Assembly: GCA_963716175.1 (NCBI GenBank)
Contig: OY970296.1
Coordinates: 2,880,001 to 2,944,000, forward strand
Length of the DNA: 64,000 nt
Source of the DNA: an uncultured Armatimonadetes bacterium
GTDB taxonomy: Bacteria > Armatimonadota > Hebobacteria > Hebobacterales > Hebobacteraceae
Direction: 5' to 3'
This document shows positions 9,229-14,448 of this stretch, piece by piece. The stretch's first letter is position 1. Every line of letters starts with the position of its first letter. The notes beneath the pieces are model-generated. The model was given only the letters and a program-made list of their open reading frames with translations, was not told the origin of the DNA and did not search any database. The translations under genes were made by a program, and so were the position numbers.

Positions 9229-10134
9229 TTGTACATTCTTACTCGCGCGAGGTCCGAACCCATAGCGAGTGGCGCCTCCAAGTCTCTCACATCAGTTGAC
9301 AAAGGGCTGACGCCCAGCAACCCGGTCCGCGTTCTCGCCTTGGCTCAGCCGTACCCAGATCCGCCTGCCCGCCACATACACTCGACTTTCGAGATTGGCG
9401 TTCTCCTGACCGGGCAGACAGACAGGTACCTCGAGGACTTGCTGGTCCGGCTGAGGACTGGCGATCTCTACTTGAGTCCGACATGTGAGTCCCACGGGTG
9501 GAGCACCGTTGCTCCCGGCAGCGTGCTGCTGGTAATCTACTTCCTACCACAGTTCCTCGGAGAGGAGACCTTCGAGGGGATACTGTGGATCAACCTGTTT
9601 GCCAGACCTCCGAGCGAGCGCCCGCGTGTCACCAACCCCGAAATGAGGGAAAAGGTCCTCGAGATCGCGCATGAGCTGGAGGAGGAGAGCCGGCACCAGC
9701 GGCCAGGATGGCGGACGGCAGTGCGGCTGGGCATAGTGAAGCTGCTGTTCACCATCAGTCGTGGCTGGCAGCCCGCGAGCCAGGGAGAGCGCCAGCGTGG
9801 CGCGCACTCCAGCGATCTGCTTCGAGTCATGCCCGCGATTAGGCTGATGCAGTCCGACCCCGAGCGCCGGGTAGGCTTGGCCGAGGCGTCGGCAGCATGC
9901 TCGCTCAGCCCTTCACGATTCTCGCTGATCTTTCGCCGGGCCATGGGCGGCAGCTTCGGGAGACTCGCATTGCGATCTCGTGTGGGCAGCGCCGCCGAGC
10001 TTCTCCTGACTAGCGAGCTGTCGGTAGCAGCAGTGGCAGAGAGGTTTGGGTTCGCGGATGCCAGCCATTTGCACCGTGCCTTCTCCAAGCTCTACAGACG
10101 CACTCCGACCGATTACCGACGTGAGGCGCAGTAG
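9229..10134 (+). CDS. AraC family transcriptional regulator
   Basis: Cupin motif HIHSTFEIG; C-terminal double HTH LSPSRFSLIFRR...VAERFGFADASHLHRAFSKLYRRTPTDYR. Start uncertain. Confidence 0.9.
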   Translation: MYILTRARSEPIASGASKSLTSVDKGLTPSNPVRVLALAQPYPDPPARHIHSTFEIGVLLTGQTDRYLEDLLVRLRTGDLYLSPTCESHGWSTVAPGSVLLVIYFLPQFLGEETFEGILWINLFARPPSERPRVTNPEMREKVLEIAHELEEESRHQRPGWRTAVRLGIVKLLFTISRGWQPASQGERQRGAHSSDLLRVMPAIRLMQSDPERRVGLAEASAACSLSPSRFSLIFRRAMGGSFGRLALRSRVGSAAELLLTSELSVAAVAERFGFADASHLHRAFSKLYRRTPTDYRREAQ

Positions 10135-10479
10135 CTGCCCTGTCTTCGGCCATTGCCTACATTCGCAGCCGTCCCCGGTATCGTGCCACCATGCCTCAGA
10201 CTGAAGCGCGTTGCCTGCGTCGCCCAACGGGTGTCCCAGATGCCCATGCCGAGAAGCAGCACGGCAAGTGCTATTCCGACCTGGCCGCCAACGTGGAAGC
10301 GCGTCGGGTCTTCACGCATGACCGGCCGGTGACATAGCCCTGCCCCAACTGCGGGTATGTGCACGAGGCAACAGAAGCACCCAAGGTGTGTCACGCCTGT
10401 GCCCATCTGTCCTTGTCAAGGCCTCGTGAAGCCGGCTGTGGCTGTTCCTATAAGACGGCACGTCAAGACTCCCCCCGTG

Positions 10480-10607
10480 CAGTTTCCCGACGACCATCTT
10501 GTGGTCTCTAATGAGACATGTCCCTATCGGCGTTAACAGCGCGCACGCTATCGTCGGTTTCGGGGGCCTCTCAGGTCAAGCGAGGGCGCTAACTTCGGCC
10601 AAACAGC
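10480..10607 (-). ncRNA. Candidate bridge/seek RNA in the 3' non-coding end of the IS
   Basis: Four short segments match the reconstructed target and the donor junction in the order LTG, RTG, LDG, RDG, with hairpin GTCTC-N4-GAGAC between the donor guides. RNA ends are approximate. Confidence 0.7.
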
Positions 10608-11660
10608 CTACGGGAGAGTGCCCCCATATTGGGCAACAGCTTTGCGGGCTCGGGGTGCCCTGTAATCCTCCTCTTTCTTGAGCATGTAGTAGACCAGATC
10701 CAGCAGGCGTCGCGCCACTGCGATCTTTGCTGGGTTGCGTCCGTGGCGGAAGGCGACCGAGAGGAAGAGGCGCTTCAGGCGCGGATCGGGCTCCTTCATC
10801 TGCCCGATCCGCTGCGCCGCTAGCACCGCGGCATACCGCAGCCACTTGTTGCCGGCCTTGGTGAGCGGGCCCCGAGCGTCCTTGTCTCCGGTCTGGTAGA
10901 CCGCCGGTACCAGCCCGGAGTAGCCCCGCAGCTGCGCCCGTCCCGGGAAGCGGTTGATGTCGCCGATCTCCACCGCCAAAGCAAGACTAAGGAAGGGACC
11001 GATCCCAGGGATCGTTCGCAGGCGCCGCGCCATCGGATGCTTCGCTGAGGTGTGCTCAACCATGCGCTCGAAGTCATCCACTTTGGCTTGCACAACAACC
11101 AGAATCTCTCGTAAGCCGGCCAGCATCTGCCCCGCGTGGCCTTCCAGCTCCACCTCCTCCAGCCACAGCTGTCCGCGTTCGCTCATCAGGTCTCGATGCG
11201 GACACTCATGACCGTGACGCGCCAACAGCATTCGGATCATCGTCCGCACCTGGGTCGACATACGAGTCAGCGCGGTCTTGCCTCGGGTCAGCTCTCTCAG
11301 ATCCATCGTCTGCCCATCCGGTCGCCACTGTGGCTTCAGTACGCCCTTTGCAGCCCACCACGCCAAGGCGGCCGCATCCCGCCGATCGGTCTTCGAAATC
11401 GTGTGCTGCAACCTTCGGACCTCTCCTAGGTCTACGATCCACACCTCCTCCGCCATCGACTCCAGCAGGCCCGCCATGTGGTAGCTGCTCCGTCCGGCTT
11501 CCAGCACCACCGTCTTCGGACAGGGCAGCCCCTCCAGCGTCTCCTCCAGGGCTGATGCCTCGTTGCTCACCGACCCCAGATCGTGTACCTCTCCGGTCGC
11601 AGGATCGAAGCACCCCATCCGAGAAAAGCGCTGGTGTACGTCCAGTCCAATCCAGATCAT
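10608..11660 (-). CDS. IS110 family transposase (bridge recombinase)
   Basis: DEDD domain IGLDVH, VLEAG, KTDRRDA; Transposase_20 domain LRTIPGIG...EIGDINRF...GLVPAVYQTG...GNKWLR; AGGAGG RBS before ATG 11660. Confidence 0.96.
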   Translation of the reverse strand: MIWIGLDVHQRFSRMGCFDPATGEVHDLGSVSNEASALEETLEGLPCPKTVVLEAGRSSYHMAGLLESMAEEVWIVDLGEVRRLQHTISKTDRRDAAALAWWAAKGVLKPQWRPDGQTMDLRELTRGKTALTRMSTQVRTMIRMLLARHGHECPHRDLMSERGQLWLEEVELEGHAGQMLAGLREILVVVQAKVDDFERMVEHTSAKHPMARRLRTIPGIGPFLSLALAVEIGDINRFPGRAQLRGYSGLVPAVYQTGDKDARGPLTKAGNKWLRYAAVLAAQRIGQMKEPDPRLKRLFLSVAFRHGRNPAKIAVARRLLDLVYYMLKKEEDYRAPRARKAVAQYGGTLP

Positions 11661-12075
11661 CGTCGGTCTCCTCCTGATGAGAGTGTTTGTGCTTCGAGCA
11701 CCTTTCAACACTTACAGGGGGAGACCGTCTTATGATAGTCAAGGGCCGCTGGAACCGTCTCATACTGGGCCCAGACGTGCCGTTACGTGCCAGGATTAGT
11801 GAGCCCGCCGCGGGTGGCGGCCTTCAGAGCGGCTTCCTCGCGGCGATGACGGCCTCTTCCAGATCCTGCCAGACTACATCAACCAGCTCGAAGCTACACT
11901 GGCGCCACTCAGCGATATGTAATCCGCTCGGACATACACCAGGCACCCACATGCAGGCTGCTGAACATGACCGCGGCAACGGACCTGCGGAGCCAAACGG
12001 CTGGCCCTGCGCGTTCCCCCGCGAAGCCACTCTAGTGGCTCATGCCTGCAGGATGAACCTGTTGGCGCTGTGGAG

Positions 12076-14448
12076 TCACTTCGGCGCAACCCTCTCATCT
12101 ACGCCCAGATGCGGCGTAATCAGAATCGTCAGGACATTTTCGTCCACCCGGCGGTGGTTGGAGCGGAAGAGCTGACCAAGTAGCGGAAGGTCGCCGAGCA
12201 ATGGCGTCTTGCTCGTCGCCTGCGTCTCCTGCCTGAGCACCAGCCCGCCAATGACGATGGTCTCGCCGTCCTTGAGCACGACGCTCGTCGTCGCCTGTCG
12301 TGCCGTGACATCCGGCAGGCTGCTCGTAGCCGTGAACGTGAAGTTGCCGACCATCACCTCCACATCCACTTGCACATTGCCCGCGCCCAGCACCCGCGGC
12401 GTGATCTTGCCTCCGATGTCCGCGGAGATGTCGCTCTGCTGAATGATGGGGCGGCCGAACTGGTCGTAGCCCTGCGTATAGAAGTAGTACTTCGTCCGCC
12501 GGATGTTCATGGTGGCGGTCTTGCCGCTCACCGCGGTCAGCCGCGGGTTGGCGCGAATGGTCACCTCGCCTTTCTCCTCCAGCGCGTTGAGCGAGACGAA
12601 GAACTTGTCATCTAGCCGCTGCACGCCCTGGTAGAAGACCTGGCCCGGCCCGAAGTCACCGATAGGTAACCGACCGCCCAGGTGCCCCTTGGCATAGGCC
12701 CAATCCAGGCCCAGGTCGCGGCTCGCCGTCTTGGACATCTCGGTCACTAGCACATCCATCACCACCTGCGGGGCCGGCGTGTCGATCGGCTTGAGGTAGT
12801 CTCGGATCCGCTGTGCGGCATCGGGTGGGCCGTTCACAATGAGGAGGTTCCGCTCGGGGTTGATGACCACATACGCCTTGTCTCCGGCGGGCAGCGAATC
12901 CAGCGCCTGCTGTGCGGTCATGTTCACCGGCTGGATCAGTGCGTAGCCCAGCGCAGCCGCCGTCGCAGCAGGAGCCGCCGGCCCGGCATTCAGAGCGGCG
13001 GCAGAGGCCGGAGGTGTCGGGGCGGGAGCCGCAGCCTCAGCTGAAGCCGATGACGCGGGCGCCGACGACCTGCTTTCCCCCGGCACCTCGAGCACGTAGA
13101 GGTCGGGCTCGTACTCCTGCTTCTCCCAACTGATGACCTTCGACTGGCACAGGAGAATACGCCTACCATCCGGCGCCCAAGACGCGGCATCATTATGCAA
13201 GTAGACAGGATCCTTCTGTCGGCGGTAGTAGAGCAGCTCCGTGGCCGTCCCCGTCGGCACGTCGTAGATCGCGAAGTCGTCGCCGGGGTCGGTCTCCTGC
13301 TCATTGCCCGCGCCCCGCACCACGTAGGTGATTCCGTGACGGAAGACCTTCTTGGAGTCCGGCGAAATCGTCCAGTCGTGCTGGTCGCTGTGCTCTCGCG
13401 ACCCCATCTGGGTGCCCATGATGCGCCGCCACTGGCGCGACTTCCAGTGGATGAGGAACGTGCCCTGATACCCGCGGCCGGAGGCATCTGCCTGTACGCC
13501 GTGGCAGATGATGAAGCTGCCGTCCGGCGACCAGGAGGGATGGACGAAAGTGCCCCGTCCATCGCTCGACTGGCTTCGGCCCGAGATGAGTGTCTGCTCA
13601 TCGCTGCCATCCGGCCGAATCACCAGAATGTCCCAGTTCCAGCCGTTGCGCGCTTCATCGGGGTACCGATCCTTGGCCGAGAAGAACACGATCCACTGCC
13701 CATCCGGCGACCACTTCGGCTCGCCGCAGTCGCGCCGGTCGTTTGTGATCTGCTTGAGCGTCATGCCATCGCTGCTGGCCACCCAGAGCTCGGGCTGCGC
13801 GTCCTTTGAGGGAAGTGCGTTGAACACGATCCGCGTGCTGTCCGGCGACCATGATCCCAACGTCTCGAACGGCTTCGTGGTGGCCAGGTTCGCTCCCAGT
13901 CGCACCGGGGCCGATCCGTCTATCGGGAAGACCGTGACGAAGGTGCCGTCGCGCTGCCGGTCATAGACCTGATAAGCCAAGTGCTGAGAGTCAGGAGCCC
14001 AGATCGGCGGCGCGCTGTCGGCCGCGCCGAAGTCGCCCCGACGATAGCCGCCGCTGGTTCTCTTTGTCTCTCCGCCAGCCAGGGTGTAGACGCACACCGT
14101 CGCCCCGCTGGCATCCTCGTTCTTGCTGGCGAAGACGTAGCCGATCCTCTTGCCATCGGGCGCCCAAGCGCACAGCATCGGCCAGCCCACTGGGCTGATG
14201 GCCTGGCCCTCACTTCCGTCTCCGCGCATGAGCCAAAGCTGGCGGTCGGTCTTGCTGACGGCCTTGTAGAAGACGATCTGGTCCCCGACCGGGGCGAAGC
14301 CAGCGCCACGCTCAGTGGAAGACTTGCCGTCATTCGTGGTCCGGTGGATAACCAGTCCCGGCGCCACTGTCTGTGCCGTGGCCGGTCCACACACGTGGAT
14401 GGAGAGCACCAGACACAGCAGGACAAGCTTCAGGGAATGCTTGAGCAT
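12076..14448 (-). CDS. TolB/PD40 beta-propeller fused to a secretin (GspD/PilQ-type) domain
   Basis: Signal peptide; about 7 W(S/A)PD(G/S)-type repeats; Ala/Pro linker; N3 domain NLLIVNG...IDTPAPQV; secretin core ANPRL, RQATTSVVLKDGETIVIGGL, PLLGDLPLLGQLF, ILITPH. Confidence 0.87.
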   Translation of the reverse strand: MLKHSLKLVLLCLVLSIHVCGPATAQTVAPGLVIHRTTNDGKSSTERGAGFAPVGDQIVFYKAVSKTDRQLWLMRGDGSEGQAISPVGWPMLCAWAPDGKRIGYVFASKNEDASGATVCVYTLAGGETKRTSGGYRRGDFGAADSAPPIWAPDSQHLAYQVYDRQRDGTFVTVFPIDGSAPVRLGANLATTKPFETLGSWSPDSTRIVFNALPSKDAQPELWVASSDGMTLKQITNDRRDCGEPKWSPDGQWIVFFSAKDRYPDEARNGWNWDILVIRPDGSDEQTLISGRSQSSDGRGTFVHPSWSPDGSFIICHGVQADASGRGYQGTFLIHWKSRQWRRIMGTQMGSREHSDQHDWTISPDSKKVFRHGITYVVRGAGNEQETDPGDDFAIYDVPTGTATELLYYRRQKDPVYLHNDAASWAPDGRRILLCQSKVISWEKQEYEPDLYVLEVPGESRSSAPASSASAEAAAPAPTPPASAAALNAGPAAPAATAAALGYALIQPVNMTAQQALDSLPAGDKAYVVINPERNLLIVNGPPDAAQRIRDYLKPIDTPAPQVVMDVLVTEMSKTASRDLGLDWAYAKGHLGGRLPIGDFGPGQVFYQGVQRLDDKFFVSLNALEEKGEVTIRANPRLTAVSGKTATMNIRRTKYYFYTQGYDQFGRPIIQQSDISADIGGKITPRVLGAGNVQVDVEVMVGNFTFTATSSLPDVTARQATTSVVLKDGETIVIGGLVLRQETQATSKTPLLGDLPLLGQLFRSNHRRVDENVLTILITPHLGVDERVAPK

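Follow-up and report, generated by a model that had tools for sequence, protein, structure and literature searches.

The window, a stretch of 64,000 nucleotides from contig OY970296.1 of an uncultured Armatimonadetes bacterium, very probably carries an intact, single-copy insertion sequence of the IS110 family, IS1111 type, with a predicted promoter at the junction of its joined ends, a predicted bridge RNA (seekRNA) 3' of its gene and an insertion into a repeat at an AC core. The ends were fixed by alignments of the reference with 77 loci and with 44 loci, in which similarity begins at AC/TATCAT and ends at GGRAC/ (slashes mark the boundary); the comparison set consisted of 5 loci from kin genomes and 77 metagenome loci. 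In these alignments the AC core is found at both junctions in the reference and in nearly all related insertions. On the minus strand the left junction reads CCCTTGAC/TATCATAAGACGG (11745-11725) and the right junction CCGTCTTATAGGAAC/AGCC (10458-10440), and the interval 10440-11745 extends beyond the element by 8 nt on the left and 4 nt on the right.

10444-11737, minus strand: element proper, 1294 bp, beginning with TATCAT and closing with the right-hand core AC, ends taken from the alignments
11725-11733, minus strand: left subterminal inverted repeat ATAAGACGG, 9 nt, 100% complementary to 10450-10458
10450-10458, minus strand: right subterminal inverted repeat CCGUCUUAU, 9 nt, 100% complementary to 11725-11733
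11738-11745, minus strand: left target half and core, CCCTTG-AC, the 3' end of a type-A interspersed repeat, where similarity between elements ends
10440-10443, minus strand: right target half AGCC, complementary to the right target guide

The inverted repeats are inset 4 and 6 nt from the element ends, and their length falls within the 7-17 bp of the IS1111 group. Their separation of 10 bp in the joined circle, claimed in an earlier note on this DNA, can be read directly from the sequence, and every string quoted in that note is present on the minus strand where it had been placed. The non-coding regions measure 77 nt on the 5' side (11737-11661) and 164 nt on the 3' side (10607-10444), the longer one lying downstream as in the IS1111 group. 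Comparison with related loci gave the same ends, with flanks that co-vary with the guides. A contig search with the transposase protein alone yielded three loci, one close relative among them. Since the host family includes an Armatimonadota MAG, it is fair to speak of a poorly studied lineage.

The gene and the predicted expression signals are arranged as follows.

10608-11660, minus strand: transposase/recombinase gene, 350 aa and stop, ATG at 11660 after a Shine-Dalgarno sequence
11664-11727, minus strand: 5' untranslated hairpin, arms 11715-11727 and 11664-11676, 13 nt, 92% complementary
11732-11737, minus strand: TATCAT, -10 box and start of the left end, shared across nearly all rows of the 77-locus alignment
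10461-10466, minus strand: TTGACG, -35 box, with TTGAC invariant in 30/30 sequences (alignment A2)

The gene product contains both domains of the family, DEDD_Tnp_IS110 (PF01548; 45.7 bits, cut-off 29, 7.8e-12) and Transposase_20 (PF02371; 73.1 bits, cut-off 21.3, 2.5e-20), and scores 199.5 bits (cut-off 140) with the NCBIfam model NF033542, 'IS110 family RNA-guided transposase'. Together with the subterminal repeats and the 3' non-coding region, these matches uphold the assignment to the IS110 family, IS1111 type. D7, E54, D92 and D95 do not vary in alignment A1, and the GL-P----TG motif is represented by GLVPAVYQTG at residues 249-258, with SG in relatives. By family motif, these four acidic residues and the TG would be catalytic positions. 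Membership of the family likewise suggests that the protein is a programmable recombinase. The 3' arm of the 5' untranslated hairpin covers the Shine-Dalgarno sequence AGGAGGAG, and the hairpin may block translation. The predicted promoter TTGACG-N17-TATCAT arises only on joining of the element ends; both boxes are present, and joining gives the 17-nt spacing read from the sequence, as the earlier note had proposed.

Downstream of the gene lies a structured non-coding region of approximately 140-160 nt. In the consensus structure 93.9% of 840 cells are paired, compared with 33-56% when the partners are slid, and the folding energy is unremarkable (z -1.5 and -1.7). An Rfam search of 10200-12000 returned nothing beyond a chance snoRNA-like match (13.6 bits, E 1.9). 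No RNA sequencing run containing the element sequence was found, and the DNA sequencing runs (n=20) contained at most 0.37 of the sampled words. Contigs from four of the runs give patchy cover, in which no circle junction was seen; they leave the reference near the left boundary, with loose ends at 11733-11757, and the contig of run X2 continues from 11733 into a different left flank ending ...CTCGAC. The first part of the RNA is a stem-loop that contains two target guides.

10562-10625, minus strand: target-binding stem-loop of the non-coding RNA, from the RNAalifold consensus and pair counts
10603-10608, minus strand: right target guide GGCUGU, in the reference 6/6 complementary to top strand AC-AGCC
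10575-10582, minus strand: left target guide CGCUUGAC, same sense as left flank and core, 7/8 in the reference

The closing stem P1 (10624-10614 with 10572-10563) is paired in 98.1% of cells, and two of its pairs have changed on both sides; the distal hairpin P2 (10600-10585) is paired in 99.2%. The right target guide, which overlaps the TAG stop codon of the transposase gene and may gain an additional U.G pair at 10602, tracks the right flank across 33 insertion events: 99/132 positions agree, against 57.7 +/- 4.5 in shuffles that ignore kinship, with 0/10000 as high. Sixteen distinct 4-mers are represented in these events, and agreement is 4/4 in nine, 3/4 in 18, 2/4 in four, 1/4 in one and 0/4 in one. 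In L009, L010 and L016 the gene ends at a TGA 6-8 codons earlier, so the conserved GGGGCACUCUCC... is non-coding in these loci. The left target guide CGCTTGAC (CGCUUGAC in the list above) behaves as the earlier note had expected, matching the left target half and core at 7/8 in the reference and following the left flank at 111/138 positions (77.7 +/- 5.3 in shuffles that ignore kinship; 0/5000 as high). Of its 27 mismatches, 10 are wobble-compatible, which raises the count from 111 to 121 of 138. The mismatch in the reference itself, one of four mismatches counted in the earlier note, is G against C and is not wobble-compatible.

One might suppose that the 3' region is merely a protein-binding or terminator structure, and that its matches to the flanks come from copying or conversion at the DNA level. 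Guide and matching DNA do form short direct or inverted repeats, which such processes might keep alike. However, the flanks belong to a host repeat and vary by insertion event, yet they fit the guides of the resident element; moreover, mismatches are enriched in the U.G/G.T types, as in the 10/27 above, and RNA guidance has been demonstrated experimentally in four IS1111-type elements (PMC11187229). We regard this explanation as extremely improbable, and continue with the reading as a bridge RNA, whose guide segments co-vary with flank and end sequences.

The earlier note had described a fully readable layout like that of IS621, with guides for left target, right target, left donor and right donor (LTG-RTG-LDG-RDG) in that order. 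Its left target and left donor guides stand, while its right target guide is not borne out, tracking being found at 10608-10603 instead, and its right donor guide decays in relatives. The segment GCTGTTAA (10540-10533), there taken as the right target guide, was rejected. In the reference, GCUGUUAA does match the opposite strand of the target at 7/8 (8/8 with wobble), and UGUCA in the loop consensus is complementary to the TGACA conserved where the element inserts. Across relatives, however, the segment ignores the variable flank positions (117/200 against 120.0 +/- 2.3 shuffled, with 4689/5000 as high), scoring only 2/8 against the flank in L042, and it forms the loop of P4, a conserved 4-bp hairpin, rather than a strand of an internal loop. 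Agreement with the right flank is far closer for the segment 5' of the left target guide. In the target loop the guide that would pair with the top strand (10608-10603) lies 5' of the one that would pair with the bottom strand (10582-10575). The same order is described for IS1111 seekRNAs by Siddiquee et al. (2024, PMC11187229), and the predicted order in the target loop is therefore the published IS1111 one and not that of IS621.

The second domain of the RNA contains the segments that relate to the donor.

10487-10557, minus strand: donor-binding domain, closed by stem P3, CCGACG 10557-10552 with CGUCGG 10492-10487
10530-10544, minus strand: hairpin P4 with a 7-nt loop, 97.5% of cells paired, loop not tracking the flank
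10504-10517, minus strand: hairpin P5, GUCUC-AUUA-GAGAC (DNA GTCTC-ATTA-GAGAC, 10517-10504), 87.3% of cells paired
10520-10527, minus strand: left donor guide AUAGGGAC, same sense as the right-end tip ATAGGAAC
10493-10498, minus strand: GAUGGU (GATGGT), the right donor guide of the earlier note, not borne out across relatives
10548-10554, minus strand: candidate right donor guide ACGAUAG, 6/7 complementary to CTATCAT (second core base and left end)

P3 is paired in 87.2% of cells without compensatory changes, P5 is altered in the L016 subgroup, and the unpaired cells of both stems lack compensation. The left donor guide ATAGGGAC (AUAGGGAC in the list) is well supported as the earlier note had placed it, being identical to the terminal 8 nt on the right in 31/37 loci and matching at 7/8 in the other 6, with three co-varying variants, ATAGGG, ATAGAG and ATGGAG. 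In the reference it differs from the right-end tip at a single position, which would form an rG:dT pair.

The right donor guide is less easily placed. GAUGGU, which scores 5/6 in the reference, retains 5/6 Watson-Crick pairs in 5/16 distinct combinations and falls to 0-2/6 in another 5/16, even though 13/16 combinations share the reference left-end start ACTATC (two carry ACTAAC); the sole 0/6 case is L028, in which the left-end tip is replaced. GAUGGU is not supported, as relatives that have this left end do not conserve it. With neither of its right-hand guides following the DNA it should match, we consider the IS621-like order of guides very unlikely. A version of the earlier right donor guide displaced by 3 nt (AUGRU-C-GU with ATCAT...AC) is attractive in the reference subgroup because the changes there are A/G opposite T; it was not adopted because the subgroups of L027, L016, L030 and L048 lack it although they have the same left end. 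ACGAUAG, on the 5' strand of the domain, is a candidate for the right donor guide, and a better one than GAUGGU. Its GAUAG part would pair at 4-5/5 positions in 17/19 distinct combinations; non-wobble changes (GACAG, GAUCG) occur in 7/19 combinations with the reference left end. In IS-B, a second, 38%-identical element of the same genome, the donor loop has no free 5' strand other than the ACGAUAG segment. The candidate is without covariation because the left end is almost invariant, and GAUGGU does not co-vary either. In L065 (53% identity) the core is apparently GT and the 5'-strand segment GAUAU fits neither expectation cleanly; its right end was looked for and not found.

It could be argued that the copy is a dead relic, in which the features are real while the element is no longer mobile and the RNA is not made. 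A genome search found a single full copy alongside at least 7 truncated remnants, no sigma-70-like promoter was found within the integrated element, and the donor guide and end tip differ by one position. Against this, the 350-aa frame is open with D7, E54, D92 and D95 kept, the two ends, the inverted repeats and the promoter boxes are all intact, and the target guides fit the present flanks at 6/6 and 7/8. The single donor mismatch is of the rG:dT type, a natural instance of which is described for IS621 (PMC11208160), and the tip ATAGGAAC also occurs in L009, L027 and L032. The lack of an internal promoter is the norm described for IS1111-type elements (PMC11187229). An immobile relic seems unlikely on balance, and we retain the reading as an intact element.

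As its target the element uses the 3' end of a short, abundant interspersed repeat, ...CGGTTGAC/AnnnACA, and a second such site lies close by.

11738-11745 and 10440-10443 (listed above), minus strand: target sequence of the element, CCCTTGACAGCC
10407-10435, minus strand: second target-like site, uninterrupted, with the type-A repeat end ...CCTTGAC and then AAGGACAG

The second site begins 9 nt past the element (genome position 2890435, minus strand). The target repeats at eight loci gave nothing in Rfam at E <= 0.01. The idea that they are the ends of transposon-encoded guide RNAs, with a link to TnpB, was abandoned, as a search of the genome (90.85% complete) gave no PF07282. A search with the left flank across 15 family genomes yielded no empty site. 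In G011 (90% identity) and G001 (74%) the match to the left flank covers the coding part only and similarity ends at 12104; synteny with these two matching kin genomes breaks off where the neighbouring secretin-like gene stops.

IS-B provides a further co-varying pair of left donor guide and end, with the variant AUAGCGAAC; 2/3 of its right-end junctions lack the AAC that the IS-B donor guide predicts. [quoted passage not shown] The DNA of the left target guide by necessity repeats the left target half and core, and the TTGAC of the -35 box does likewise. Such internal look-alikes might, though this is rather unlikely, serve as recombination sites and give rise to 5'-truncated modules, donor half plus right end, lying beside an intact left target half. 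If so, truncated modules would be landing pads for new copies, giving a tandem of element and module, or non-autonomous units moved in trans by the transposase, and by-products of self-targeting would be inherent to bridge-RNA elements. A limited search of main-text literature found no report of an orphan, standalone or non-autonomous bridge RNA or seekRNA.

Taken as a life cycle, these features suggest that the element would excise as a circle, as in its family, and that joining of the ends would create the promoter TTGACG-N17-TATCAT. A transcript from the junction would cross the gene for the 350-aa DEDD/Ser-type recombinase into the 3' non-coding region, which would be processed into the bridge RNA (seekRNA). 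The first stem-loop (10625-10562), closed by P1, would act as the target loop; in the second domain (10557-10487) the left donor guide would pair with the right-end tip ATAGGA-AC via one rG:dT pair, and the 5' strand would probably supply the right donor guide ACGAUAG. Recombination at the AC core would then insert the element into the 3' end of the abundant short repeat without duplication beyond the core.

The element resembles ISEc11, ISPa11, ISKpn4 and ISPst6 of the IS1111 group, as described in PMC11187229, in size (330-350 aa in the group), in the GL-P----S/TG motif, in its subterminal inverted repeats and long 3' non-coding region, in a promoter that is predicted to form only at the circle junction and in the use of a repeated host sequence as target, REP in the case of ISPa11. 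It differs in its Armatimonadota host, its AC core and a right target guide that overlaps the stop codon. No sequence-level relative was found among named elements, the best plasmid-borne IS110-family genes being at most 33.9% identical and named 'IS110 family transposase' only, and the IS1111 type is assigned here from domain matches and layout. With IS621 (Durrant et al., 2024, PMC11208160; PDB 8wt6) it shares a predicted two-domain RNA with target- and donor-binding loops, one guide per DNA strand in the target loop and probably in the donor loop, with overlap at the 2-nt core, tolerance of rG:dT pairs and a DEDD recombinase with a C-terminal serine domain. Similarity between the proteins is restricted to that C-terminal domain, which matches IS621 and ISCro4 chains (E 1.1e-05). 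In contrast to the arrangement here, with the RNA 3' of the gene and a target loop reading right then left, the RNA of IS621 lies in the left end, 5' of the gene, with left then right guide; its subterminal repeats are 2-3 bp and its core CT, compared with 9 bp and AC. ISPpu9 (Pares-Guillen et al., 2025, PMC12288879) likewise has full elements and lone 3' modules in one genome, and its alternative internal end-like boxes yield several circle forms. It belongs to the IS110 group, however, and its separate module, ssr9, is not a bridge RNA, whereas the modules here comprise the donor-binding half and the right end.

Overall, the known picture of the IS110/IS1111 family is unchanged by this element. 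RNA-guided IS110/IS1111 recombinases are under development as genome-editing tools, and mechanistic work has mostly concerned IS621-like systems. The relatives of the element form a natural covariation set for an IS1111-type RNA, which places three of the four guides. The comparison also indicates that guides are misplaced when a bridge RNA is read from one sequence alone, since other parts of the RNA contain short chance matches to the conserved core region (TGACA, ATAG). For its hosts, the family is one that inserts at the ends of abundant repeats in an uncultured phylum.

The minus strand at 11737-10444 holds the complete set of parts of an insertion sequence, which is very probably an IS1111-type member of the IS110 family with a predicted bridge RNA. 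It lies within the 1.9-kb gap between a secretin-like and an AraC-family gene, 338 nt past the secretin-like stop codon, and is the one full copy, accompanied by fragments, in the host genome (one contig, 4.56 Mb).

Features at and around the element
11660-10608, minus strand: transposase ORF, 350 aa, ATG start preceded by AGGAGGAG
12076-14448, minus strand: secretin-like neighbour, 790 aa, with PD40 beta-propeller repeat, Secretin_N and Secretin domains
9229-10134, plus strand: AraC-family regulator neighbour
10435-10407, minus strand: second, uninterrupted target-like site of the first type, beginning 9 nt past the element
10407-10435 and flank 11738-11765: target-repeat sequence within the window (short interspersed repeats)

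The 350-aa protein carries the Pfam domains DEDD_Tnp_IS110 and Transposase_20 and scores 199.5 bits (cut-off 140) with the NCBIfam model NF033542 ('IS110 family RNA-guided transposase'); the family assignment made in an earlier note was right. Among solved structures, matches were confined to IS621 and ISCro4, in the C-terminal domain (E 1.1e-05). A longer GTG-start frame was rejected, being without counterpart in relatives. For the IS1111 group, Siddiquee et al. (PMC11187229) describe subterminal repeats, non-coding sequence on the 3' side, transposases of 330-350 aa that carry a GL-P----S/TG motif, RNAs of a long (~150 nt) and a short (~80-96 nt) form, and a guide order in which the top-strand match comes first, 5' of its bottom-strand counterpart; the present element fits on every point. 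Durrant et al. (PMC11208160) place IS1111 bridge RNAs within the right end, with one predicted in 93.0% of IS1111 elements. Related transposases occur in 8 of the 61 genomes searched (E <= 1e-30, G000 counted), the close relatives all coming from the family of the host, and plasmid-borne named relatives are distant (identity <= 33.9%). A metagenome scan with an alignment of four proteins recovered 77 loci, many with 62-93% protein identity. Candidate guides, and the flank or end that each would be expected to match, were pulled from the alignments and compared.

In the left-end alignment (reference and 77 loci), similarity starts at AC/TATCAT in all rows reaching that point except L028 and L057/L058, in which the tips are replaced. 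Minor variants are TAACAT (L009, L059, L067) and CATCAT (L078), and L065 has GT instead of AC at the left junction. Similarity in the 3'-region alignment (reference and 44 loci) stops after GGRAC. These points set the limits at 11737-10444, with flanks CCCTTG-AC and (AC-)AGCC, in agreement with the ends and flanks of the earlier note, whose quoted strings are each present where it had placed them. The empty target site that it had proposed to find in related genomes was sought via the left flank in 15 genomes of the host family and was not found. The 9-nt subterminal inverted repeat has perfectly complementary arms. Joined ends would set TTGACG (10466-10461) 17 nt from TATCAT (11737-11732); a scan for sigma-70-like promoters within the integrated element found none.

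Two further observations concern the ends. In the 5' UTR (11664-11727, minus strand), a 13-nt inverted repeat pairs GGUCUCCCCCUG, from the left end, with CAGGAGGAGACC, the Shine-Dalgarno region, and in the L016 subgroup UCC for CCC in the left-end arm gives perfect pairing with AGGAGGAGACC; the repeat probably provides translational masking of read-through transcripts. The right end is cut at the identical point, after TTGACACGCC, in R124 (host contig C1, 124460-124570) and metagenome locus L064, with the same foreign sequence following, a pattern that suggests insertion of a different element into the right inverted repeat.

The earlier note held up in large part. From a single sequence, it had mapped four guides, of which the left target and left donor guides stood and the right target and right donor guides did not. 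The left target guide CGCUUGAC follows the left flank at 111/138 positions over 23 distinct guide-flank pairs (121/138 with wobble pairs counted), against 77.7 +/- 5.3 with shuffled flanks; none of 5000 shuffles scored as high. The right target guide proposed earlier, GCUGUUAA, corresponds to the 7-nt loop capping hairpin P4 and does not follow the flank (117/200, shuffled 120.0 +/- 2.3), its baseline likeness arising because conserved UGUCA mirrors the conserved insertion-point TGACA. Instead, the opening 4 nt of the right flank are tracked by the 4 nt lying 5' of GU (10604-10603), with 16 distinct 4-mers in 33 events and 99/132 positions matching (shuffled 57.7 +/- 4.5; 0/10000 as high). These events include L023 and L064, which have disrupted right ends, and leave out L020 (sharing a contig with L010) and L057 (not alignable). 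In the reference, the segment reads GGCUGU, fully complementary to AC-AGCC and overlapping the TAG stop codon; since the gene stops at a TGA 6-8 codons upstream in L009, L010 and L016, conservation of this stretch does not derive from coding.

RNAalifold, applied to 30 distinct 3'-region sequences, predicts a stem P1 (10624-10614 with 10572-10563) closing a loop with the right target guide on its 5' strand and the left target guide on its 3' strand, and a small distal hairpin, P2. Within the five-helix model, 93.9% of 840 cells are paired, compared with 33-56% for slid partners. Two pairs of P1 show changes on both sides; the model outside P1 is conserved rather than co-varying, and P3, which closes the donor-binding domain, and hairpin P5 have breaks without compensation in some subgroups. 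Single-sequence folds recovered P1, P3 and P5 (z -1.5 and -1.7).

In 31/37 loci, the left donor guide AUAGGGAC is identical to the final 8 nt of the right end, with one difference in the other six, and guide and tip change jointly in three variants (ATAGGG, ATAGAG, ATGGAG). The shuffle test (28/30 matches; 260/5000 as high) is weak, with five distinct pairs after de-duplication. Because the left end is nearly invariant, covariation cannot decide the right donor guide. Across 16 distinct combinations, the site chosen earlier, GAUGGU, pairs at 5/6 in five and falls to 0-2/6 in another five, and it is improbable as the guide. GAUAG (in ACGAUAG, 10554-10548), which lies on the donor domain's 5' strand, complements the second core base plus TATC, and pairing of 4-5/5 is kept in 17/19 combinations, both failures having replaced left-end tips. 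An assignment to the 5' strand, parallel to the target loop, also draws on the donor-domain architecture of a second IS1111-type element of the host genome (38% protein identity to the reference), present as two identical copies of 1403 bp.

Copies of the second element (contig C1; loci L019 and L017)
~1969.3-1970.7 kb, plus strand
~1884.3-1885.8 kb, minus strand

Of its own guides, CGAUGAAC corresponds to the left flank and AUAGCGAAC to the right-end tip. Its donor domain consists simply of a stem, an internal loop and a hairpin, the sole free strands being CGAUAGCAU (5') and CGAUAGCGAAC (3'), the latter matching its own right-end tip. The expected AAC is absent at two of its three right-end junctions. 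Taken together, these data give the ACGAUAG region about an even chance of being the right donor guide; beyond the small share left to GAUGGU, the remaining probability falls to something else, or to protein recognition of the inverted repeat. In IS621, pairing of the right donor guide is discontiguous, according to Durrant et al. (PMC11208160).

Short interspersed repeats of two families, numbering dozens of copies in the host genome, act as landing sites. For the reference and its close relatives, the left flank is a repeat 3' end (...CCGGCTTCACGGGCGGTTGAC/AnnnACA), a 21-mer of which has 53 matches in the genome at <= 4 mismatches. The L016 subgroup targets a different repeat end (...GATGAGTTTCTGGAC/AGCRCGG), whose 15-mer has 51 matches at <= 2 mismatches, some of them unrelated coding sequence. 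BLAST with 750-nt queries gave up to 64-88 matches over the final 100-300 nt. One copy, when folded, has long terminal inverted arms and is therefore REP- or MITE-like; an Rfam search of the target repeats gave no match and a TnpB domain search of the host genome found none. Several subfamilies are alike in only the last ~30 nt, and some copies form inverted pairs. The right-flank consensus, AGGGACA, is similar to TAGGGAC, the right-end tip of the element itself.

A 3'-region profile search revealed at least seven transposase-less copies in the host genome, mostly 5'-truncated, and more in kin genomes.

Transposase-less copies of bridge-RNA region plus right end
C1 1713094-1713232, minus strand
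C1 57493-57623, plus strand
C1 124460-124570, plus strand
C1 1626982-1627086, plus strand
C1 157074-157146, minus strand
C1 2968270-2968318, plus strand
C1 267779-267881, minus strand
Further copies: loci L122, L128, L133, L136, L141

Donor guide and end tip agree in these copies (ATGGAGAC in the 57 kb copy, ATAGGGAC in the 1713 kb copy). Several start at common RNA positions (~59 or 105/106), directly abutting a complete target-type repeat end; three (two in the host genome, one in G007) start at the C-run ending P1 and adjoin a complete repeat end, and two start at the left-donor-guide core. The clean case is copy b of the second element, in which a 90%-identical module (donor loop and right end) comes in tandem after the right end, joined at the AC core; the join reads ...GCGA-AC-TGGGAGG, identical to what comes after the left-target-guide core in its own RNA gene. 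Guide-coding DNA could conceivably stand in, within the element, for the target half-site, yielding truncated modules, an unlikely explanation that fits copy b and fits the other modules only partly. Separately, kin genome G014 has twelve donor-loop and right-end matches (L120, L127, L131, L133-L141), mostly at contig ends and with differing right flanks, and no transposase match at E <= 1e-30; they probably mark an element present in many copies, at which the assembly broke. L120 has a second 15-nt right-end tip between right end and flank.

Overall, the element belongs to an already known kind and is ordinary for its family, its named relatives being distant. Its chief value lies in the covariation data set and in the caution it offers against reading guides from one copy.
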